From positions 1-64,000 of the IMG/VR virus record IMGVR_UViG_3300029825_000003: DNA of 64,000 nt; one strand, 5' to 3'. Shown one piece after another: positions 986-43,612 of the stretch. Within the stretch, counting starts at the first letter, position 1. The number at the start of each line of letters is the position of its first letter. This DNA is from a virus. A model generated the notes under the pieces. It searched no databases. It saw only the letters and a program-made list of their open reading frames with translations, and had not been told where the DNA came from. Made by a program: the position numbers and the translations under genes.

Positions 986-3274
986 TTATTGGCGTTTAAA
1001 CCAGCCCCAATAATATTTCATATAAAGAAAGATCACGCCTAACAATCCTAAAAATGGGTCTACCCACAATTCTGTTGTTTTTTCTGGCATCTCATGTTTA
1101 ACTATTTTCCAATCTTTGATTTTTATCTCTTCGTATGGGGTCTTCACAGTTACATCTAATTTATCTTCATCAAATACCCCTAATTCCTTAATCCAATCTG
1201 CTTGATGTGGTATATCCCCTTCCCAATAATCTAAAGTTGTGAAGTTGGTATAAATTACCCCGTTATTGTTTTTATTGCGTTCTCCAACCATTAAATTATG
1301 AACTGATGAATTACCATCATATTCATATGTAATCTTCGTGAGGGATGTTCCATTAGCTTTTACTGCAAAATAAGTCGGGTAAACGTGAATTACCCCTGTT
1401 ATATTTTCAGTTTTTGGGAGAACACTTGGAGCAGGAATTGAATCATTAAACACTGCTACAGATGTATGCTTTTTCCCTTTTTTCCATGTTCCAGTCTTTT
1501 GGTCTTTAACAAGATTGTACCACTTCATTTTTACCGTCAGTGTTGCATAAGCTGTCTCATTCTCAATATGAACATCTACGGTCTTTTCAATTTTAGAACC
1601 TCCTCCTCTCCATCCGATGAGATCAGGTGACTTAATAGCTTCATATTTGACCATGACAGCATCTTCAGAAGGAATATAAGGTACTCCCTCAATGAAAATT
1701 TCATCTTTGAAGCCGATTAACTTGATTCCCCCGTAGATTTTGCCTTTTGAAGTCTTCTCAACTTCATAATTTATACTGTCTGCTGTTTGGCCTGTAACTC
1801 CGGTATCAGTAAATTCTACATCTAAAATACTAAAAATAGAGTCAAATTCCCTCTCAGGAACAGGCTCATAATCAATGCCCTCAACCTTTTCGTCCACTTC
1901 AACATGAGAATCCCATACAGTCTTCTCAGCCGACACATAATCACATTCCCATCCAGATCCAGTCCAACGCCATCCCGTACTTGCAGGATCTATCTTAGGA
2001 TCTTGAATTAAGTCGTTCCCTGAACATTTATTATAATTTCCTCCTGCGTTCTCCCAAAGGACATTTCCTTCAGAAATTATATTATGCGAGTGAGAAAGAG
2101 TATTCGAAAGCCCATATCCCACACCAGACCCTGTATTGCGACCCTTTTTCGAGTTTGTAATAATATTGTCCTTCACGGTAATATCAAAGTCTGCTCCTGT
2201 CTGCCCCGTAGGGAGCCCCTTGACTTTGTATGTCACTACTCCCGCATTTGAACAACCGTCAAAAACATTATTATAAATATTAACATTATGAACTACAGAA
2301 GTCAAGACCCCACCCTGCCAGTCTCTTCCGTCCCATCCAGTACTTAAAAACGCATTGTGGTGGATTTTTATATCCGTCAGGTCTTCATCATAATTATTAT
2401 TATCTCCAACAATCCAAAGCCCCGGCCCGCCTGTGCTCACAAAAACATTATTGCAGATTTCTACATCCATTTCCTGCTTTTCAATTACGTCAACTTGCCC
2501 ACCTGGACCCGCGCTCTCTCTCGCTGTGCAGGTAATGTAATTGTCATGGATGTAAGCGTTATCACTACCGCGAATTCTGAATGCATTGTTTATTCTGCAA
2601 TTGATTTTACAGCCATACATTTCAATATTTGAAGAACGTATAGCAAAAAGAGCTTCGTGCCCAAGCCGTTCAGCTTCAATATTATAAAATTTAATGTTTG
2701 TGCATTTTATAGGTCTGAGGAAATCCCCTAACGAATTTTCACCTGAACAATCGTGAACAGATATCCCATCACAGCCTGTCGGCATGATAAAATTATAGAA
2801 GCCCCTTCCCGTGATTAAGTCAGGTTGCCCACCCGCGTTACCGTCAAAATGTATCCCGATAATCTCAATATTTTTACAGTTATTTGCTCGGATCATCGGG
2901 ATCATCGTTTTTGCGTACCCCTTTGTGGCAGCATGTTTATACTCACTCCCAGAGAGTCTATTTGCATTATCGGGAAGTGTAATTGTTGTTTGTCCCTGCC
3001 CATCGAGTACTGTGTCAGAATCCAAAATGATAGGGTCATTTATACAAAAATCACCAGAGAGATAAACTGTATCTCCTTCTCGGATTGCTTCATTGATTTC
3101 TTTTTGGTCGGCTGCGCCATCTGTTGTCCATGTTTGGTCTCCGCATTGTACAGTCCCTGCTGATGCTAATCCGGTGAAAAATAATAGTAGGATAGGTATC
3201 ATGATGATTGAAAAATGGATCATATTAAGTCGTACTTTCTCAAAGGCTGACACTACATCACCGTGGTACAACAA
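986..3274 (-). CDS. Secreted, C-terminally membrane-anchored right-handed parallel beta-helix protein, disaggregatase-related (likely start 3220)
   Basis: Signal MIHFSIIMIPILLLFFTGLASAG; motifs DGT.DQ.EIN.A, GRGFYNFI, LGHEA, GPGLW, GG..TS...NNVFDG; C-terminal TM. Confidence 0.8.
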   Translation of the reverse strand: MLYHGDVVSAFEKVRLNMIHFSIIMIPILLLFFTGLASAGTVQCGDQTWTTDGAADQKEINEAIREGDTVYLSGDFCINDPIILDSDTVLDGQGQTTITLPDNANRLSGSEYKHAATKGYAKTMIPMIRANNCKNIEIIGIHFDGNAGGQPDLITGRGFYNFIMPTGCDGISVHDCSGENSLGDFLRPIKCTNIKFYNIEAERLGHEALFAIRSSNIEMYGCKINCRINNAFRIRGSDNAYIHDNYITCTARESAGPGGQVDVIEKQEMDVEICNNVFVSTGGPGLWIVGDNNNYDEDLTDIKIHHNAFLSTGWDGRDWQGGVLTSVVHNVNIYNNVFDGCSNAGVVTYKVKGLPTGQTGADFDITVKDNIITNSKKGRNTGSGVGYGLSNTLSHSHNIISEGNVLWENAGGNYNKCSGNDLIQDPKIDPASTGWRWTGSGWECDYVSAEKTVWDSHVEVDEKVEGIDYEPVPEREFDSIFSILDVEFTDTGVTGQTADSINYEVEKTSKGKIYGGIKLIGFKDEIFIEGVPYIPSEDAVMVKYEAIKSPDLIGWRGGGSKIEKTVDVHIENETAYATLTVKMKWYNLVKDQKTGTWKKGKKHTSVAVFNDSIPAPSVLPKTENITGVIHVYPTYFAVKANGTSLTKITYEYDGNSSVHNLMVGERNKNNNGVIYTNFTTLDYWEGDIPHQADWIKELGVFDEDKLDVTVKTPYEEIKIKDWKIVKHEMPEKTTELWVDPFLGLLGVIFLYMKYYWGWFKRQ

Positions 3275-33141: not shown

Positions 33142-33492
33142 TTATTTCCCTTCCTCCTTCTTAGGGACAGTCTTAATTAATCTATTATTCCACGCAATAC
33201 AATCATGTATCATCTCTTTTGCCTTTTCCTCGTCAATCGTTCCGTCTTCACCAGGAGCTAACATCCTGAGATAATCAACGAGTTCGTCATCCATATTTAA
33301 CTTCGTAAGCGCGTTCCCGTTCTGTTTTTTGACTGCGTGTATAATTTCTGAGGGGACTATCAATTTGGATAGCCAAATGTCAATATATCCCTTTTTCAAG
33401 AGATATCCTACAAATCCACTAATAGCAACCCCTACAAAAGCCCCACATTTCTCAAGAATTGCTATCGTGGCGTCATCAATTATAATAGACAT
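33142..33492 (-). CDS. Single-TM holin-like membrane protein
   Basis: GAFVGVAISGFVGYLL TM with GxxxG; charged C-terminus. Confidence 0.5.
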   Translation of the reverse strand: MSIIIDDATIAILEKCGAFVGVAISGFVGYLLKKGYIDIWLSKLIVPSEIIHAVKKQNGNALTKLNMDDELVDYLRMLAPGEDGTIDEEKAKEMIHDCIAWNNRLIKTVPKKEEGK

Positions 33493-33567
33493 CTGTCCCT
33501 CATGCGACAGACTGTCTTAAATACTGTCTCAACCTGGCCAATTTCAGTTTTAGAAATTCCACAATCA

Positions 33568-33882
33568 TTAATAATTCTCCTCGATCAAGTTTTTCAGGTC
33601 AGTAAAAACAGGATTACTCAAGATCTCTTTCCCGTCTGCAATCAGTTTCTGGGCTTCCTCGTTTGAGATGTCCCCGTCGCTTGCAGCAAGTTCAAGGGAA
33701 TTTAGTAGGCTACCAAGATTTGAAAGGAGTCCGAGAATAAGCCCGCTCTCTTCTACAAACAATTTTATAGAGTTTTCAGCAAGTCGAAGCTGTGGGGAAA
33801 GTTGTTTTAGTTTCAGAGCAAGTACAGCGGAGGCCGTTGCGAAAAGTACAGTTAAAAGTCCTATAAAAGGTTGCGCGTCCAT
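33568..33882 (-). CDS. Holin-like membrane protein
   Basis: N-terminal TM (FIGLLTVLFATASAVLAL), amphipathic helix, DG.I+.EE motif. Confidence 0.55.
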   Translation of the reverse strand: MDAQPFIGLLTVLFATASAVLALKLKQLSPQLRLAENSIKLFVEESGLILGLLSNLGSLLNSLELAASDGDISNEEAQKLIADGKEILSNPVFTDLKNLIEENY

Positions 33883-33958
33883 ATATACACCTCATAAAAA
33901 AAATATGATATTGTTAATAAAAAAGGAAAATTGATTAGAGTCTCTTGACCAATATTTT

Positions 33959-34501
33959 TCAAACCTTCAAATAGATTTCCATTACTCTTCCCCCAATATG
34001 GGCTTTGAGGTCTTCTGAGAGGTTCATTGCGTCCTGTTCAGAGGTACAAATAATTTGAATACGTGCAGGAGTTCCAACAGGCATCTCTTCTTCTACAGGA
34101 GGTTTACCTGGGTCTACGACAGGATCTGTGACAACGTCTTCATACGAATAAGTGTAAGTACACAATTTCATCAGTGCTTTTGCAGTTCCTGACGTTTTAA
34201 GCCGCCATCGAAGAACCACATCCTTTCCGGCACCCACAAAAATATCAACAGCTTTACTTTTCTGCTGATAACTCGTTTTCCCTTCTTCCCATGTTGCAAG
34301 AGGTTCGGCTTTCCCGTCAAGAGTTATCCAAGCGGTAGCAGTTACCCCGAAGGCAGCCGCCAAAGAGCAACCTATGGAAGAAATTCTTATTTTCTTGCCT
34401 TCTTGCCCTCGAATGGTTACGGTTTTTTGTATGCAGCCCGTCTTTGCACAGTCTTTGTATAGTGTTGTGTACACATTTCTAACATCAGTTACTATGGTCA
34501 T
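33959..34501 (-). CDS. Stand-alone beta-sandwich domain homologous to the repeated domain of the tail protein (putative glycan-binding subunit)
   Basis: GKK.R+...C.LA.A..G.TA.A.+T...SY...I+...V.+...+TS.TA..A.M...+TY aligns with two segments of 38789..43612. Confidence 0.65.
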   Translation of the reverse strand: MTIVTDVRNVYTTLYKDCAKTGCIQKTVTIRGQEGKKIRISSIGCSLAAAFGVTATAWITLDGKAEPLATWEEGKTSYQQKSKAVDIFVGAGKDVVLRWRLKTSGTAKALMKLCTYTYSYEDVVTDPVVDPGKPPVEEEMPVGTPARIQIICTSEQDAMNLSEDLKAHIGGRVMEIYLKV

Positions 34502-35751
34502 TATGCACGCCTCAATATTGTTCTTCTAGGATACTTTTCCTTGATAGTCTTAAGCTCATTTTCCGAACAATCAAACATCAAAAAAGCCGGATTTTCAATT
34601 ACTGGCTCAGGTTTTTCAACAACATTATAAAGATCTCTGACATTTCCAGAATATGAATTCCCCTGAGCTATAACTTTTGTATATTTTTGTGGTTTCAAAT
34701 TACACAATGCAGTACCGGAAGCAGTGCCTACCGTATTACTTCTTTTAGTCCCATTGAAAATATTATTTTTCACAACTGCTGAATATCCTGAACCGGAAGC
34801 AGACACCGAAACGTATTCCCCAAACAAAACACCATACCCGAGACATCGACTAAATGTGTTTTGTTCGACCACTACATCATCCCAGCCCTCACATGTTATT
34901 CCGCCTACACCAGGGATATGATGATAATCTGAATCCATATTTCCACAGTTCGAAAATAGATTATTTCTAACTGTCAACCCCGACGCTGCCGATACGGATT
35001 TGTTAGACGTCCCGATAATCCAGATCCCCGGCCCCCATGTGTCATGCACGTCATTATTTTCTATTATAATATTTCTAGAGGACATTCCAGATGTACTATT
35101 TTCTACCTGCATCCCAGGACTCGATGCCCGCCCTCCATTTTTGTTGATAATATAGTTCCCATGCACATGTCCGCCGTCAACGTGTCGGAGCCTGCATCCT
35201 GAATTTGTCCGGAGTTCCACGTAATTATCAAAGACGTCGATGTTTTGGCCTTTATCGATGTATACCGCATCATGCCCACACCGAACGATTTTATTTTTAT
35301 AATAGTTAACATTTTTTACATTTGTCAGGCGTGCGCCGTCCCCCATACTGTCATGGATATGACAATCATGTATTGAGATGCCGGATGCTCCTGAGAGTCC
35401 TATGAAATTGTGAAATCCTTTTCCGAGAATTGTAGTTTGATTATTTGAATTTCCATCAAATGTCAATCCTGAAAACTCAAACCCCGTTCCTCCATAGACT
35501 TTAGAACCGATAACGGGAGTCATCGAGGGAAAAATGGAAGTAGAAATGTGATCTTTTAGCCGGAAGACTGTATTATTTCCGGAGAGTTTCACACCAGGGA
35601 AGAATTTAACAGGGGATGCAATTTCAATATCATTTGTGGAAAAAATAAATTCAGTAGGCGTGTTGCCTGCGGTATTAATGAGATTTTGTAATTTTTGTGA
35701 GGAATCAATAGAAGAACCTACAGAGACGGTTTTCATATTAAGAAGTAACAC
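34501..35751 (-). CDS. Disaggregatase-related beta-helix protein without signal peptide (putative endolysin equivalent)
   Basis: GKGFHNFI, DSMGDG, CGHDA, RTNSGCR, WGPGIW, GGIT...+EQN.F; TAATG-coupled to 33959..34501. Confidence 0.8.
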   Translation of the reverse strand: MLLLNMKTVSVGSSIDSSQKLQNLINTAGNTPTEFIFSTNDIEIASPVKFFPGVKLSGNNTVFRLKDHISTSIFPSMTPVIGSKVYGGTGFEFSGLTFDGNSNNQTTILGKGFHNFIGLSGASGISIHDCHIHDSMGDGARLTNVKNVNYYKNKIVRCGHDAVYIDKGQNIDVFDNYVELRTNSGCRLRHVDGGHVHGNYIINKNGGRASSPGMQVENSTSGMSSRNIIIENNDVHDTWGPGIWIIGTSNKSVSAASGLTVRNNLFSNCGNMDSDYHHIPGVGGITCEGWDDVVVEQNTFSRCLGYGVLFGEYVSVSASGSGYSAVVKNNIFNGTKRSNTVGTASGTALCNLKPQKYTKVIAQGNSYSGNVRDLYNVVEKPEPVIENPAFLMFDCSENELKTIKEKYPRRTILRRA

Positions 35752-35848
35752 GAATGAGTATAAAAGAGAAAATTAAATTATTTAGTATAGTTTATAAAAA
35801 TAATAAGAGAGTTAAATAGTTAAAGGTTGGTCATTGTTAAATACTGTA

Positions 35849-35867
35849 ATGTACTATAATAGTACAT
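35849..35867. promoter_or_regulatory. Palindrome ATGTACTA-TAA-TAGTACAT abutting an ATG; TTAAATA box upstream
   Basis: Perfect 8-bp IR. Confidence 0.7.
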
Positions 35868-36020: not shown

Positions 36021-36412
36021 TGGAAGAAAACGAAGTCGCTATAGCTTTTCCATTAGATGATTACCATGTAGAAAAAATAAATAAACTCTGGAAAGCAAAT
36101 AAAATTAACTACGCTGATTTCAAATTCATTCCTATTCAGTACAATTCTATCATGGGTGAATATCTAAATGAATATGATATCCAACTTGAAACTAATGTGC
36201 CTCATATAGTCCTTGTTATACGACTGTATGATAATGTAAATCATGATAAAATTCAAAAATGGTTTGAATCTGAAGGTTTCAAGATAGTAGGGATCAGTGA
36301 GACAATTACATGCGCTGAATGGCACAATGGGATTAAATTTGAACAAGTTTATGCAACTGAAACTACAAAATATAAACATACAAACACTATCAAAAGAAGA
36401 GACATACAATGA
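36020..36412 (+). CDS. Hypothetical protein
   Basis: ORF coupled by TAATG. Confidence 0.65.
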   Translation: MEENEVAIAFPLDDYHVEKINKLWKANKINYADFKFIPIQYNSIMGEYLNEYDIQLETNVPHIVLVIRLYDNVNHDKIQKWFESEGFKIVGISETITCAEWHNGIKFEQVYATETTKYKHTNTIKRRDIQ

Positions 36413-36783
36413 AATGCGAATCATGCCAAACCGAATTTACCGGAGAAGCCTGTCCAAATTGTGGACTCAAACCGCATAAACAACGCTGTAAAAGCTGTTC
36501 TAAAAAGTTTTACTCTAGTTATCTAAAAGGAGGCTTCTGTCCTGATTGTTTTGGAATGTTAAAAGACGTCCCATATAAAAGCCCTCTTCTTGCGTTTGTG
36601 TTTTCAATTATACCCGGAGCTGGTCATGTTTATTTAGGAATGAAAGAACGAGGGGCAGGTTGTTTTCTGCTGTTTTGTATTTCATTCTTGACCTTGATAG
36701 GATGGATTTTTATAATTTTGTTTTCTGGAATTGATGCTTATATTTTAGCAAATCAAATGAATAGGTTGGATGGATATGAATGA
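36409..36783 (+). CDS. Double zinc ribbon + TM2/NINE-like membrane protein
   Basis: CxxC pairs; KSP.LA...S.IPGAGH.YLG...RG. Confidence 0.8.
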   Translation: MKCESCQTEFTGEACPNCGLKPHKQRCKSCSKKFYSSYLKGGFCPDCFGMLKDVPYKSPLLAFVFSIIPGAGHVYLGMKERGAGCFLLFCISFLTLIGWIFIILFSGIDAYILANQMNRLDGYE

Positions 36784-38788: not shown

Positions 38789-41700
38789 TTACACCAACAT
38801 GTCGGCATCTCTATATTTCAGTGTCACAATTACGCTAGACGTTGAATCAACAACCGCCCCGAATGTGTTTACCTGCCCTTTGAATATTTTTGGATGTTCA
38901 GCGTCTATCGTTACAAGGCTTGCATACATGAAAATAGAGTTTATCCTGAGTGTATCAGTTCCACCACTCGCAATTTTTAGATGGAATTTTGTAAGACCGT
39001 TCAAGATGCAATCAGTTCCACTGTTCAAGAGCCTATAAGCCTGAGCGTTGCTGATATCCGTTGTTGTATTTCCATCGAGAGGATACCAAGTTCCGGGGCT
39101 TCCCGCGTTATCTTTAGCTATATAGATAGTCGGTGCTCCTGACATAACATTTAGGACAATGTAAGGAATCCCGGTGATTGGGTATTTTGTGTCGAATTTA
39201 TAAATCAAATACCCTGTAGCATTAAACAAGAGCATCTTATAATCATCATAATAAGTAACATAAGCAGAATCGGTAACTGTATATTCATATGCTGTATCTG
39301 CAAAATTTTCACTATACTGATAACTTCCCGTTCCATCTGCGTTTATTGTAATTTTACAGCCAGGTTTCAACTCGTTACAAACTTCCATCCGAGTAAGAGT
39401 ATCAGCCTCGTTATAAATTGAAATAGCAGAGGATGTCACGGAAGGGATAATTTCAGTGTAAGTAAAAGCAAAATTATCCATATATGCTCTGCCGGCTGTA
39501 CTTGAAGTTCTCATATATACTTTGATTGTAACAGTTTCATTCGTTGCTGAATAAATTTCACTATTATATTTTCTTGTAGCATACGAGGAAAGCCTAGTAG
39601 TAGACGAGAATACAACAACCTGCGTTTCCGCACCTGAATTAATGGAAGCGGCTTTTACCGTCACTCTTGCATATGCCGTTAATCCTGAAACGTTAGCAGT
39701 TGCCAATAAACAAGCAAATTGGTCAAGTCTATATTTTTTTCCGTCTGTGAGTGCAGGGAGAACATAAGTAAACTCTAGAGAATATGAAGTCAGATATTCA
39801 GAATGAATATCTGGATCTGTATACGTTTTTGTATCTCCATCGGTTTCATTCGTTCCGCTTTTTGAGGTGATTGCAGTCACTTCAACATCAGGGATAATAT
39901 CTACATGTCCGGTAGTTGTGATGTCCTGCCCTGTAGTACCAAGTTCAAAATCGGAAGCTCTTTCAATCAAAACGTCATCGCAATATACCTTCGCTCCTGA
40001 ATTTAGAGTGTCAACTCCATGAATCCGGATATAGGCATCGACAGGGGCAGTATCAAATCTTATTGTATCCTGCAATTGGGAATATTCACAGTCGGCATCC
40101 CAGAGAAGCTGAGTAATTATCGAATTTCCAGAATAGATATCAACAGATAATTGACCATGAGTTAAACCGGTTACTGCTCCCCATGCACTGACCACGTAAG
40201 AAACCCCTGGATCAAACATAATGTACTGAGTTGAACGCCCGATGTCTTCTGTAAGTCCATCCCCTGATATCTCTAACGCATATAAACCGTCATGTGCAAC
40301 TGAATCACTTCTAGTCTGCCCTTCGCTTTCAAGAGTCCAGCTAGCCGGGGTTTGAATGCCTCCATAATCAGAGGAGGTCATTATCCTGTTATTTGATCCT
40401 GTAGAACTTACTGATACAAACTGATTAAGATCAGAAGAATAACAGACAGAATTCCAGTTATTGTCGGCAGGAGTGTCACAGAGAACCCAATTAGCCGCAT
40501 CATTTGACCTCATTGCTCTGTTTCCTGTACCCGACTTCGCAACACATACCAAAACCGAGTCTTCAGGAGACCATGTAAGCCCCTGCCATGCGTTGTAGGT
40601 ATATGAGACAGTTGCTCCACCTGCTCCATCGAATTCAGTTACTTCATATCCTATAAGGGTAGCATACGCCCTATAAGACGAATTCGAGGATTTCATATAA
40701 CACTGAATAGTTATTGCCTCATTTGCAGCCGTTTCAAATGTTACATCCAGTGTTTTGTCTTCATACGTCTGAGAGACAGAAGAGAATTCAGCCAGAACTG
40801 TTTCTGTTTTTGTTGCGGTTGTTGCGGTAATTTTTATCCATGCTGTTTGTCCGGTCTGTGCGGTCCTTAACTGGCAGAATACCCGGTCAATTCTCCAAAT
40901 GTGATTATTTGTAAGGGCTGCAACTGAGAGAGTAGGCCCACCAGGATATTGAGTAGAATAAGCTGTGACTCCAGAACTATATACCCATCCTTCGGTTGTT
41001 GTAGATGTCGTTGTAGCTACATCAGTTCCAGTTCCAGGGGTAACTATAGACCCACATACAGGAGTTGTCTGCAAGGTCCATTCATCACCATCAGGAGAAG
41101 TTACAATCTGCTGAGTTCCATCTTCAGTACATGCAACAAAAAGACCAAGTGTTTCAGCCCATACAACACTCTTAAACTTCTGAGCAGGAGAAGGTACAGA
41201 AGAAGCTAAATTCCAAACTTCACCATAGTCAACAGAACTCATTATATTTCCATCATAGGAAACCGCAACCAATTTTAGGAGGGATTGTGAGTAACAAACT
41301 GAAACCCAAGTGTTTGCATCTTGGGTATACGTTGCAATTGACCACGTTACTCCACCATCATCTGAATACATGGCTCTGCCAGTACCTGATGATGCAACCG
41401 CGACATAACGGTAGACAAGATCAACGTCGTCCCTAACATAACATACAGAATTCCAGTTGTTATCGGCAGGCGTGGTTCTCGCAGTCCATGTTATTCCATC
41501 GTCTGAAGTCATGCACCTGTTTCCAGACCCTGAAGAAGATACTGCAACCCATCTTCCCGGCAAGAGGTTCCCACCATCAAGCCCGATGGAATACCCCCAC
41601 GCAAGCCCCCTCCAATTATTATTACAATTTGTTGCGCTTGTGAGTCCAGAAGGAACTGACCATGTATCACCGTCAGAGGATATCTGAACGCCATTATTGC

Positions 41701-43612
41701 TCCCACCCGAAGCAACCGCGCAATATTTTGCAAGCTCTCTTGACCATCTCACACAAGTCCATTCAATATCCGCTACACTCGTAGCAGTTGCCCAGGTCAT
41801 CTCGCTTGAAGTAGCCCAATCCTCAAAAGAAGGATTTTTCAAGAGATTACCAGCGTAAGTATCATCTGCGGACCACGTACTCGATCCATATACATGCCTG
41901 CCCCTTACCTTCTGAGAGGCACTTTCTTTGTGAGGTTTTTCCATTTGGTATAAAATAGAATAAGGCTTTGCATTCTCAGGGACATCGGTTGTAAGTCTCA
42001 ATTTAGAACTATGGTCAACCGTGAGACCCCTGCACAGTGTACCCGCATAAGGACCGCCTAATTCTAGCTTAGACTGACCTCTTGAAGTGTCGTACCATGC
42101 AGCCATAACCTCATCTAATTCATCAATAGAAAACGCAAAACAGTCTATGACAAGCCCCGTCCCCTTGAACCCAAAGTCTGTTAAGTTATCTCCTTCTATG
42201 CCCGGAGCTTTCTTTTGTCCTACTGATTTACCACCGTCAACGGCTAATTCTTGCCAATTGAATTTTACCCCGTTTATGTAGCCCTGTCTTGGTTCAGTTG
42301 AATCATAATAATTGGTTAATTCCTCTTGAATAATCCGTATCGGAGGGATATATCTTGTAGTAGGGGTTGTTGTCCCCCCGGTTGAAGATCCTCCTGAATA
42401 TGCACCGTTTGAGGTTGTAGAAGTTGAGATTGGAGTAACTTGATAGTAGTCTCCTGTAACATTTCCGCTTGAATAATTTTCTTCTGCGTATACAGCCATC
42501 TTGGATGGAACCATATTCAAGATTCCGTATCCGCTAACAGGAAGCATACGAGTGGGATCTGTTGCGAGAGTAACCTTCGTATTCAGAATATTGTTATTAT
42601 TTACCTGCATTGTGCAGCCTGAAGCAATGGAATCGAGAACAACAATTCCAGCATTATAACAGCCTGAAATTGTATTATATTCGATAGTAAGCCCATTACC
42701 CCACTTCCAGAGACCAATACCGCCGTTATATTTGATGTTATGCATCCATCCACACGCGGTTATTGTATTATTCCAAATATGAACAGTCTGTGCGGTTGTC
42801 CCGGCTGCTCCATAGGCATCCATCAGGAGAATGCCCACGCCTGCTCCGTCAGTTATTGTATTTTCGTAAATGTTAATATTTTGAGTAAGACGTGTTAAAC
42901 CGTATGAAGCAGGTTCGTTCCCTATCTGAATTGCTCCGTTCCCGTTTGCCCCGGTTCCTGCGTATTTGTGAGTGTCATTATCATGGATGTTAATATTTTG
43001 ACAGTTGTCTAGTCTCACACATGAATTACACTTCTGAACGATGTCATTAGTATAGATATCTCCACCAACCACATCTATGAAGAATACGCCCTCATGTCCC
43101 ATTACGTCAACGTCATTATAATAATATTTGATATTTTCACCATGAGTAAGCCTCAATCCATCCCCTAAACTGTCATGGATTTTCATATTATAGACGGAAA
43201 TATTCTTCACCGGACTACTCGCAGTGCCGGTTATCTGGATACAATTATAATAGGCATCTCCCTCAGATTCCGTTTGATTGGCTCTGTTTCCATCAATCTC
43301 GAAACCGTGAATTTTTATATTGACGGAGGCATGACCATTACCTTCATACTGCCTAATGATTCCAACCATTGAAGCCCAACCAGCATTATTTTTCAGGCGA
43401 AGGCAGGCAGTAGAATCACCGGTTAATTCAGTATTATCCCCTAGGAGGACAGAGGTTTGAATATCGTAAGTACATGGACCTTTTAGGTATACAGTACTTC
43501 CAGGATTAGCGACAGCCGCCGCTAGTGCAGAGTTTATTTCAGATTGGTCATTTGTCCCGTCTACAATGTATGTAGCCCCTGAACCTGAAGGACCTACCGT
43601 GTAAGTAGTCAT
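38789..43612 (-). CDS. 1607-aa multidomain tail protein: disaggregatase-like beta-helix + Dit-like + CBM4/9-like + BNR-type propeller + repeated beta-sandwich
   Basis: Directly downstream of TMP; N-terminus DGTNDQSEINSAL..VYLKGPCTY.I...GDSTA; NLLKNPSFE; SSDG.TW repeats. Confidence 0.82.
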   Translation of the reverse strand: MTTYTVGPSGSGATYIVDGTNDQSEINSALAAAVANPGSTVYLKGPCTYDIQTSVLLGDNTELTGDSTACLRLKNNAGWASMVGIIRQYEGNGHASVNIKIHGFEIDGNRANQTESEGDAYYNCIQITGTASSPVKNISVYNMKIHDSLGDGLRLTHGENIKYYYNDVDVMGHEGVFFIDVVGGDIYTNDIVQKCNSCVRLDNCQNINIHDNDTHKYAGTGANGNGAIQIGNEPASYGLTRLTQNINIYENTITDGAGVGILLMDAYGAAGTTAQTVHIWNNTITACGWMHNIKYNGGIGLWKWGNGLTIEYNTISGCYNAGIVVLDSIASGCTMQVNNNNILNTKVTLATDPTRMLPVSGYGILNMVPSKMAVYAEENYSSGNVTGDYYQVTPISTSTTSNGAYSGGSSTGGTTTPTTRYIPPIRIIQEELTNYYDSTEPRQGYINGVKFNWQELAVDGGKSVGQKKAPGIEGDNLTDFGFKGTGLVIDCFAFSIDELDEVMAAWYDTSRGQSKLELGGPYAGTLCRGLTVDHSSKLRLTTDVPENAKPYSILYQMEKPHKESASQKVRGRHVYGSSTWSADDTYAGNLLKNPSFEDWATSSEMTWATATSVADIEWTCVRWSRELAKYCAVASGGSNNGVQISSDGDTWSVPSGLTSATNCNNNWRGLAWGYSIGLDGGNLLPGRWVAVSSSGSGNRCMTSDDGITWTARTTPADNNWNSVCYVRDDVDLVYRYVAVASSGTGRAMYSDDGGVTWSIATYTQDANTWVSVCYSQSLLKLVAVSYDGNIMSSVDYGEVWNLASSVPSPAQKFKSVVWAETLGLFVACTEDGTQQIVTSPDGDEWTLQTTPVCGSIVTPGTGTDVATTTSTTTEGWVYSSGVTAYSTQYPGGPTLSVAALTNNHIWRIDRVFCQLRTAQTGQTAWIKITATTATKTETVLAEFSSVSQTYEDKTLDVTFETAANEAITIQCYMKSSNSSYRAYATLIGYEVTEFDGAGGATVSYTYNAWQGLTWSPEDSVLVCVAKSGTGNRAMRSNDAANWVLCDTPADNNWNSVCYSSDLNQFVSVSSTGSNNRIMTSSDYGGIQTPASWTLESEGQTRSDSVAHDGLYALEISGDGLTEDIGRSTQYIMFDPGVSYVVSAWGAVTGLTHGQLSVDIYSGNSIITQLLWDADCEYSQLQDTIRFDTAPVDAYIRIHGVDTLNSGAKVYCDDVLIERASDFELGTTGQDITTTGHVDIIPDVEVTAITSKSGTNETDGDTKTYTDPDIHSEYLTSYSLEFTYVLPALTDGKKYRLDQFACLLATANVSGLTAYARVTVKAASINSGAETQVVVFSSTTRLSSYATRKYNSEIYSATNETVTIKVYMRTSSTAGRAYMDNFAFTYTEIIPSVTSSAISIYNEADTLTRMEVCNELKPGCKITINADGTGSYQYSENFADTAYEYTVTDSAYVTYYDDYKMLLFNATGYLIYKFDTKYPITGIPYIVLNVMSGAPTIYIAKDNAGSPGTWYPLDGNTTTDISNAQAYRLLNSGTDCILNGLTKFHLKIASGGTDTLRINSIFMYASLVTIDAEHPKIFKGQVNTFGAVVDSTSSVIVTLKYRDADMLV

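Follow-up and report, generated by a model that had tools for sequence, protein, structure and literature searches.

A conserved four-gene cassette of a tailed Methanosarcinales virus as a candidate matrix-escape and lysis module

The stretch of DNA analysed here (the window) comprises bases 1-64000 of the 73,512-bp IMG/VR virus record IMGVR_UViG_3300029825_000003, which is rated complete (CheckV). Four minus-strand open reading frames (ORFs) span positions 35751-33142 and encode, in this order, a beta-helix enzyme, a partner protein of 180 amino acids (aa) and two small proteins, each with a single transmembrane (TM) helix. The enzyme ORF (35751..34501) yields 416 aa when read from a GTG, while the public gene call begins at the ATG at 35736 (411 aa), which is probably the true start. 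The ORF of the 180-aa partner (34501..33959) overlaps the enzyme gene such that the start codon of one lies within the stop region of the other (cataATGacc, a TAATG overlap). The genes for the 104-aa (33882..33568) and the 116-aa (33492..33142) TM proteins lie 76 nt and ~470 nt, respectively, downstream of this pair. Homologues of all four genes are present in other viral contigs, so these are real genes and not chance ORFs. The co-orientation, the gene order and the TAATG coupling are as described in a first-pass annotation of the region.

On sequence evidence, the product of the first gene is a disaggregatase-related beta-helix protein that is made in the cytoplasm. It matches the Pfam families PF08480 Disaggr_assoc (E 4e-23, 82.8 bits against a cut-off of 22.6; 85.9 bits in the genome search) and Beta_helix (E 1e-16), and a Pfam scan of this enzyme and the 180-aa protein returned Disaggr_assoc, Beta_helix, NosD, or nothing. 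The N-terminus is devoid of a hydrophobic segment (maximum Kyte-Doolittle value of 0.86 for a 19-residue window), and the AlphaFold2 (AF2) model is a right-handed beta-helix (pLDDT 90, pTM 0.86), in line with the signal-less beta-helix enzyme that had been proposed. The model matches the AlgE4 A-module and beta-helices of the GH28 and PL families with a Foldseek probability of 1.00. Its nearest PDB folds include the mannuronan epimerases AlgE4/AlgE6, polygalacturonases, alginate lyases, the Vibrio biofilm lyase RbmB, a K1 capsule lyase, phi29 gp12 and the HK620 tailspike; their substrates are mostly uronic-acid polymers or capsule/biofilm polysaccharides. A sequence-profile search of the PDB with the enzyme family gave no match. 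No N-terminal particle-binding or adaptor domain was found in the enzyme, as the beta-helix cap begins at residue 1-60 in the paralogue alignment and in the model. Methanochondroitin, a GlcA-GalNAc polymer, forms the matrix around the cell. It is cleaved by the disaggregatase of Methanosarcina mazei, the sole characterised member of the family (PMC12369344), and we infer the same specificity for the viral enzyme.

The virus possesses two additional Disaggr_assoc paralogues. One of them is the N-terminal part of a 1607-aa tail protein (42413..43612, minus strand; Pfam 1.4e-13), with which the enzyme shares 30% identity across tail residues 50-405 (BLASTP, E 8e-29), a relationship that the first-pass annotation had already noted. 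The other, retrieved by the genome search, is a 762-aa protein (986..3274, minus strand; Pfam 1.5e-32) that is 29% identical to the 416-aa enzyme (E 4e-34) and that has an N-terminal signal-like helix, a C-terminal stretch of ~330 residues and a C-terminal hydrophobic anchor. The virus thus appears to encode this enzyme in three topologies, namely exported and anchored, tail-borne, and cytoplasmic with a short C-terminal tag. A polar core of nine residues (Q100, D133, R136, H155, N178, R182, N194, Q210 and N228) is invariant in 15 homologues and is retained in the tail-borne and exported paralogues. Because this core is kept in all three, the paralogues probably share one chemistry. The second disaggregatase-related family, PF06848 Disaggr_repeat, had no match anywhere in the 73.5-kb genome.

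The 180-aa partner begins with a jelly-roll domain (aa 1-122; 34136..34501, minus strand; AF2 pLDDT 90.9), which is followed by a Pro/Glu-rich linker (aa 123-143; pLDDT ~53) and a C-terminal beta-alpha-beta tag (aa 144-180; pLDDT 78-94), the latter two being encoded at 33962..34135 (minus strand) and delimited from the family alignment and the AF2 model. The claim that this domain is present twice in the tail protein holds, as copy 1 (aa 875-990; 40643..40990, minus strand) and copy 2 (aa 1275-1386; 39455..39790, minus strand) are matched by a profile of the stand-alone family with independent E-values of 6.6e-15 and 8.9e-13. The two copies also match each other (E 1e-12), and the 180-aa protein aligns directly with tail residues 1290-1386 (BLASTP, E 4e-5). 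In fold comparisons (VIA) the jelly-roll domain matched the C-domain of Pgp3 (Z 10.8; rmsd 3.7, 121 aligned residues), CBM36 (Z 9.9; rmsd 2.6, 105 aligned residues), the TNF-like lectin PLTL (Z 9.6) and the receptor-binding domain of lambda gpJ (Z 8.9). BC2L-C, CBM6 and BcsB are likewise among the matches in the Z range of 9-11, and cyanophage tail-fibre domains were matched also. Z values of 9-11 point to a common fold and not to a function, though a glycan- or receptor-binding module would yield just such values. The partner is best described as a jelly-roll module of the lectin/CBM/receptor-binding type, with glycan binding predicted from the fold.

An exhaustive HMMER search of 1.8e9 representative proteins retrieved 48 clusters of the 180-aa family. 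Nearly all are stand-alone proteins of 160-190 aa, and two are long tail proteins with the domain occurring twice. Among 284 species genomes of the order to which the host of a related provirus belongs, the family is absent from 283, and the one remaining match lies inside that provirus; for this reason the family looks virus-specific.

The enzyme and its partner end in what appears to be the same tag of ~35 aa. In the enzyme, the beta-alpha-beta tag (aa 387-416; 34504..34593, minus strand; delimited by the tag alignment) follows a Pro-rich stretch and contains a conserved Cys. This residue, Cys390, is kept in at least 90% of the enzyme family, and the corresponding Cys152 is invariant in the partner family. 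The C-termini of the two families align end to end around the conserved Cys, and a comparison of the two tag sets by hhalign gave a probability of 80% (E 1.3e-5, 34 columns). A hidden Markov model (HMM) that was built from the partner-family tags alone matched the extreme C-termini of enzymes (E 2.6e-4, 1.1e-3 and 1.5e-3). When all six-frame ORFs of the window genome and of six loci were searched with a joint tag HMM, exactly two tagged ORFs per virus were found. The enzyme tag of one relative (L009; such labels denote the related loci) is without the conserved Cys.

In the monomer models the tag is placed confidently, with a helix at residues 392-401 in the enzyme, and the segments flanking it are not hydrogen-bonded strands, a picture compatible with flanking strands that pair between chains. 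A complex prediction for the enzyme and 180-aa families scored 0.21 (mark 0.32) and is used here neither for nor against binding.

The second cassette gene appears to encode an exchangeable module of the carbohydrate-binding type. In the related provirus (L010/L014), the gene that follows the enzyme does not belong to the 180-aa family and specifies instead a 213-aa protein composed of Disaggr_repeat (E 1.9e-81) and CBM96. This protein, too, has the tag at its C-terminus (tag HMM, E 5e-10), so that three unrelated domains with adjacent genes carry it. Enzyme and partner of L010/L014 jointly carry both disaggregatase-related Pfam domains, Disaggr_assoc and Disaggr_repeat. A profile that included the tag had no further match in the 283 other genomes of the provirus host's order.

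The two small TM proteins noted in the first-pass annotation complete the cassette, and each has one N-proximal hydrophobic helix. In the 104-aa protein, the helix (residues 5-23, Kyte-Doolittle 2.13) is followed by a 79-aa acidic helical C-domain; in the 116-aa protein (Kyte-Doolittle 1.79), a conserved KKGYIDIW motif follows the TM helix. Because acidic residues precede and basic residues follow the helix, an N-out/C-in topology with a cytoplasmic helical domain of ~80 aa is predicted for both. The C-domains have net charges of -7 (104-aa protein) and -2 (116-aa protein). Small size, a single TM helix, a charged C-domain and a location beside a putative lytic-enzyme gene constitute a holin-like layout, and we regard the 104-aa protein as a holin candidate and the 116-aa protein as a candidate second holin or holin partner. 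Their neighbours in the ESM Atlas (scores 0.80-0.84; 11% of one cluster being Phage_holin_6_1) are too weak to count as evidence. An EF-hand reading of the 'DG-x-I-x-x-EE' motif in the TM proteins was dismissed, since the canonical Asp positions are missing.

The gene order was compared in two series of related loci, series A being seeded from the enzyme or the partner and series B from the 116-aa family. Series B bears on a point that the first-pass annotation had singled out, namely whether the TM genes are conserved together with the enzyme. The seven contexts of the 116-aa family are the window, L009/L024 (one contig), L019, L020, L021, L022 and L023, and in all of them a Disaggr_assoc gene is found on the same strand within 3 kb upstream, with a gene of the 104-aa type adjoining. 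The full four-gene order is seen in L019 and, at 38% identity, in L023, while L020 and L022 have no partner gene and the cassette of L021 contains insertions. One of these is a Tad2-like (anti-Thoeris) gene (L021:4733-5239, plus strand; Pfam 5e-18), which is located between the partner gene and the TM genes. Homologues of the 104-aa protein occupy the same position in L019, L020 and L022, and proteins of the same architecture do so in L009, L015 and L023. The 116-aa family consists of 14 homologous clusters; its window member is 34% identical to the 131-aa protein of L009 (E 6e-10). BLASTP yielded no alignment between the 104-aa protein and the 108-aa protein of L009, nor between the 116-aa protein and a 115-aa protein of L012, and these are analogues by architecture only.

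Series A revealed a broader range of arrangements. In L007-L009 the enzyme is followed by a 179-aa partner, a 108-aa one-TM protein, a 131-aa one-TM protein and then, on the opposite strand, ParB, PAPS-reductase and SNF2. The enzyme homologue of L009 (L009:5500-6929, plus strand) has its N-terminal 55 codons out of frame with a 394-aa ORF, which reflects either a frameshift or an assembly error. L012 has the enzyme, a 193-aa partner and small genes that include proteins with two TM helices and with one, and L015 has the enzyme, a 187-aa partner, a 276-aa beta-helix protein, a Cys-rich protein and TM proteins of 101 and 76 aa. The provirus L010 contains the enzyme, the Disaggr_repeat partner, a 276-aa beta-helix protein and a toxin-antitoxin-like pair, followed by the integrase. 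This pair (L010:10984-11514, plus strand) consists of a DUF2683 gene and a weakly ParE-like toxin gene (E 4e-4) and lies between the enzyme block and the integrase. An extra gene for a 276-aa beta-helix after the partner is thus found in both L010 and L015. L013 has a tagged enzyme of 37% identity within its tail operon, and in L016 the enzyme occurs alone. In L017 and L018 there are enzyme and partner, with no clear TM genes; these two may represent a different kind of element. The upstream neighbours of the L017/L018 pair are TerD, a P-type cation ATPase, RtcB and a second Disaggr_assoc protein of ~600 aa. Taken from these neighbourhoods, the TM pair seems tied to the vicinity of the enzyme, and the enzyme family to be distributed more widely. 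DUF1699 genes flank the cassette in L012 (7437-7637), L016 (6352-6756), L019 (6450-6866; Pfam 7e-43) and L020 (6427-6840); no copy was found in the genome of the window virus.

The genes for enzyme and partner overlap or abut in the window and in L009, L012, L015, L017, L018 and L019, which indicates that their start/stop coupling is conserved across lineages. One exception was encountered: in L004, a relative of 70% identity, a 77-codon ORF (~230 bp; L004:143-376, plus strand) is located between enzyme and partner, so that the TAATG coupling is broken. Upstream of the window cassette is an A/T-rich divergent intergenic region (35752..35867) with TATA-like boxes TTTATAAA and TTTTATAC, read from the sequence, that may serve as its promoter. 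Between the 180-aa and the 104-aa genes (33883-33958, minus strand), a T-rich tract (TTTTCCTTTTTTATT) precedes an A/T-rich stretch and a ribosome-binding site (GAGGTG), and this arrangement may comprise a terminator of archaeal type and an internal promoter. The cassette sits where tail genes meet replication genes; in the window and L019 it has its own upstream region and is separated from the tail operon by opposite-strand genes. The lysis cassettes of many bacterial siphoviruses occupy a comparable tail/replication junction. Among the opposite-strand genes that separate the window cassette from the tail genes is one for a 124-aa protein (36409-36783, plus strand) whose N-terminal region is rich in Cys and resembles a zinc ribbon, whose C-terminal half is strongly hydrophobic (Kyte-Doolittle up to 2.76) and which matches DUF6677 weakly. 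For the 50-aa gene that is divergent from the cassette, only a non-significant MazE/AbrB-like match was obtained (E 0.095).

By its gene content the virus is tailed, with a tape-measure gene (46639-43613, minus strand; PHROG 1e-80) that is followed on the same strand by the genes for the 1607-aa tail protein and a 384-aa tail protein. A search for an integrase in the viral genome found none. The host is probably a member of the Methanosarcinales, known to order level, because a provirus related to the window virus sits in a metagenome-assembled genome (MAG) designated 'uncultured Methanosarcinales archaeon' and because, among 14 control genomes, Disaggr_assoc, Disaggr_repeat and DUF1699 were matched only in Methanosarcina acetivorans. 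DNA of the cassette region recurs in metagenomes from sludge, anaerobic digesters and landfills (9 studies). There was no near match and no protein-level match among the INPHARED phages. IMG/VR scans that used the enzyme or the 180-aa protein as a single query sequence found nothing, nor did a scan of genome contigs with the 180-aa alignment. A weak match to phrog_2233 (E 0.051) was dismissed as noise, as a PHROG scan with all 26 family members gave none at E <=0.01.

Of the possible explanations for this gene set, we tentatively favour one in which the cassette is a late, non-tail module for matrix escape and lysis of a tailed Methanosarcinales virus. We do so because a cytoplasmic depolymerase that lacks a particle-binding domain is coupled to a tagged partner of the binding type, because the TM pair is co-conserved and the cassette lies at the boundary of late and replication genes, and because the same two domains are already present on the tail, where they would be available for entry. 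The tags would join the enzyme and the binding subunits in one hetero-oligomer and so make up a split disaggregatase. Once infection comes to its end, the two membrane proteins, with their predicted N-out/C-in topology, would act as a holin or holin pair and make the membrane permeable; the enzyme complex would then reach the methanochondroitin matrix around the cell and digest it, so that the progeny could leave the aggregate. The tail-borne paralogue would have the same task during entry, and the 762-aa paralogue with its signal would act from the cell surface.

Several observations weigh against this interpretation. The TM proteins match no holin family in Pfam or PHROG, and their C-domains are acidic rather than basic; holins are, however, too diverse for a missing family match to count. 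The T-rich tract after the 180-aa gene may place the enzyme pair and the TM pair on two transcripts, and the enzyme family occurs without the TM pair in L010, L013, L016, L017 and L018. Statistical support for homology between the tags of enzyme and partner is moderate, which is expected because the tag has only ~35 residues. A matrix depolymerase alone would not break the S-layer, so that this breach is not explained by the genes of the cassette. Finally, the enzyme finds its best PHROG match in a tail spike (1.5e-10), and tail-fibre-like genes immediately precede the enzyme genes of L013 and L020.

The last two points lead to the main and serious rival, a virion appendage, which we consider somewhat unlikely. 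The 416-aa beta-helix would in that case be a second, separately encoded tail spike and the 180-aa jelly roll a distal adhesin or assembly partner, possibly analogous to Tfa/gp38, which is encoded just downstream of the fibre gene and binds the C-terminal tip of the fibre. The shared tag would act as a docking site or as a foldon-like trimeriser, and the TM genes would form a separate lysis or exclusion unit, as the T-rich tract that parts them from the enzyme pair might suggest. The matches of the enzyme to phi29 gp12 and the HK620 tailspike, and those of the partner to lambda gpJ, cyanophage tail-fibre domains and trimeric TNF-like lectins, fit such an appendage, as does the occurrence of both domains in the tail protein itself. 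The cassette, moreover, always adjoins tail genes and is within the tail operon in L013 and L020. Against the appendage, the enzyme begins with its beta-helix cap and has no N-terminal virion-attachment domain, and both domains are already present on the tail. In the window and L019, furthermore, opposite-strand genes and a separate upstream region cut the cassette off from the tail operon, and the TM pair is never without the enzyme in the contexts found.

It is also conceivable, although improbable, that the cassette follows the logic of escape and lysis with another substrate, for example the N-glycans of the S-layer or, in a Methanosarcinales host that lacks methanochondroitin, a different exopolysaccharide. 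The host is, after all, assigned through a provirus in an uncultured MAG and thus to order level only, and membership in Disaggr_assoc is no proof of specificity, given that the fold neighbours act on alginate, pectin, carrageenan and capsules. Against this stand the restriction of the three Pfam matches to M. acetivorans among the control genomes and the identity of the family's sole characterised member, the M. mazei disaggregatase (PMC12369344). Least probable is a moron-like manipulation of the host, in which the enzyme pair would remodel or disperse the host matrix during infection or carriage and independently of lysis (spreading infected cells or exposing their neighbours, for example) and the TM proteins would serve in superinfection exclusion or as anchors: the three Disaggr_assoc paralogues of differing topology (one exported and anchored), the typical moron position of the L010 pair at a prophage end beside the integrase and the toxin-antitoxin-like pair, and the anti-defence gene in the L021 cassette speak for it, but an enzyme that lacks an export signal has no way to the matrix while the cell is intact, the window genome yielded no integrase, and gene order and coupling are kept across divergent, lytic-looking genomes.

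The matrix-escape and lysis module that we favour can be compared with several known systems. The M. mazei disaggregatase (PF08480, PF06848) belongs to the same beta-helix family, and the L010 pair adds the Disaggr_repeat domain to this likeness. The window enzyme differs from it in being viral, in lacking a signal peptide (the characterised enzyme is extracellular) and in being split into two polypeptides, with an unrelated, virus-only jelly roll as the partner and a C-terminal tag on both parts. In the holin-endolysin cassettes of bacteriophages, including those with the two-component holins XhlA/XhlB, an envelope-degrading enzyme adjoins small membrane proteins. The window cassette resembles them in that a signal-less enzyme and small membrane proteins are encoded next to one another where the late genes end, and are conserved together; it differs in that the presumed target is an exopolysaccharide matrix and not murein, that the enzyme gene precedes the TM genes, and that the TM proteins, with their acidic C-domains, fall outside the known holin families. 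A system of this type is not known to have been reported from tailed archaeal viruses (PMC10791045).

The placing of catalytic and binding parts on separate polypeptides had been proposed by analogy to PlyC, the lysin of the streptococcal phage C1, where these functions reside on separate genes (PlyCA and PlyCB). The proposal itself gains indirect support from the coupling, the shared tag and the partner swap in L010/L014, and the two systems have in common that catalytic and binding subunits (the latter, in our case, predicted from the fold) are encoded by separate adjacent genes, here TAATG-coupled. There is no homology to PlyC in sequence or fold, and assembly would here proceed via the shared C-terminal tag, so that PlyC serves as an analogy only. 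Phage tailspike depolymerases with their Tfa/gp38 adhesins share with the cassette the beta-helix fold, a small protein of receptor-binding type encoded directly downstream, and the proximity to tail genes; the differences are the missing N-terminal particle-binding domain, the C-terminal tag and the linkage to TM genes. To our knowledge, lysis enzymes that degrade the envelope have been characterised for methanogen viruses only in the form of the pseudomurein endoisopeptidases PeiP, PeiW and PeiR from viruses of Methanobacteriales. The window enzyme would likewise be a cytoplasmically made, lysis-type enzyme of a methanogen virus, but fold, chemistry and substrate are unrelated and the host has another type of envelope.

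A more far-reaching proposal, which we put forward as rather doubtful, is that the Cys-containing tag of ~35 aa is a portable assembly module that joins the enzyme with interchangeable glycan-binding subunits (Disaggr_repeat/CBM96 or the virus-only jelly roll) to form a matrix lysin of several subunits, and that the 104-aa and 116-aa proteins are the first pair of holins from a tailed archaeal virus. Lysin and holins would then constitute the first egress machinery to be defined for tailed viruses whose archaeal hosts have neither murein nor pseudomurein.

According to a review from 2024, holins have been elusive in the genomes of archaeal viruses, and the players in lytic egress of tailed archaeal viruses are uncharacterised (PMC10791045). 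In the literature, we found no paper that links disaggregatase-like genes to Methanosarcina viruses. Methanochondroitin-encased aggregates of Methanosarcina are reported to withstand infection with at least one virus, MetSV (PMC12369344). How tailed archaeal viruses exit their hosts is an open question, for which the cassette provides four conserved candidate genes in a host group with genetic tools. A viral matrix depolymerase, occurring in three topological forms, would bear on the dynamics between viruses and hosts in digesters, sludge and landfills, and it could be a tool for dispersing aggregates. The module possibly represents the holin-plus-lysin theme adapted to an exopolysaccharide matrix, and the tag that its enzyme and partner share may be a new small assembly domain.

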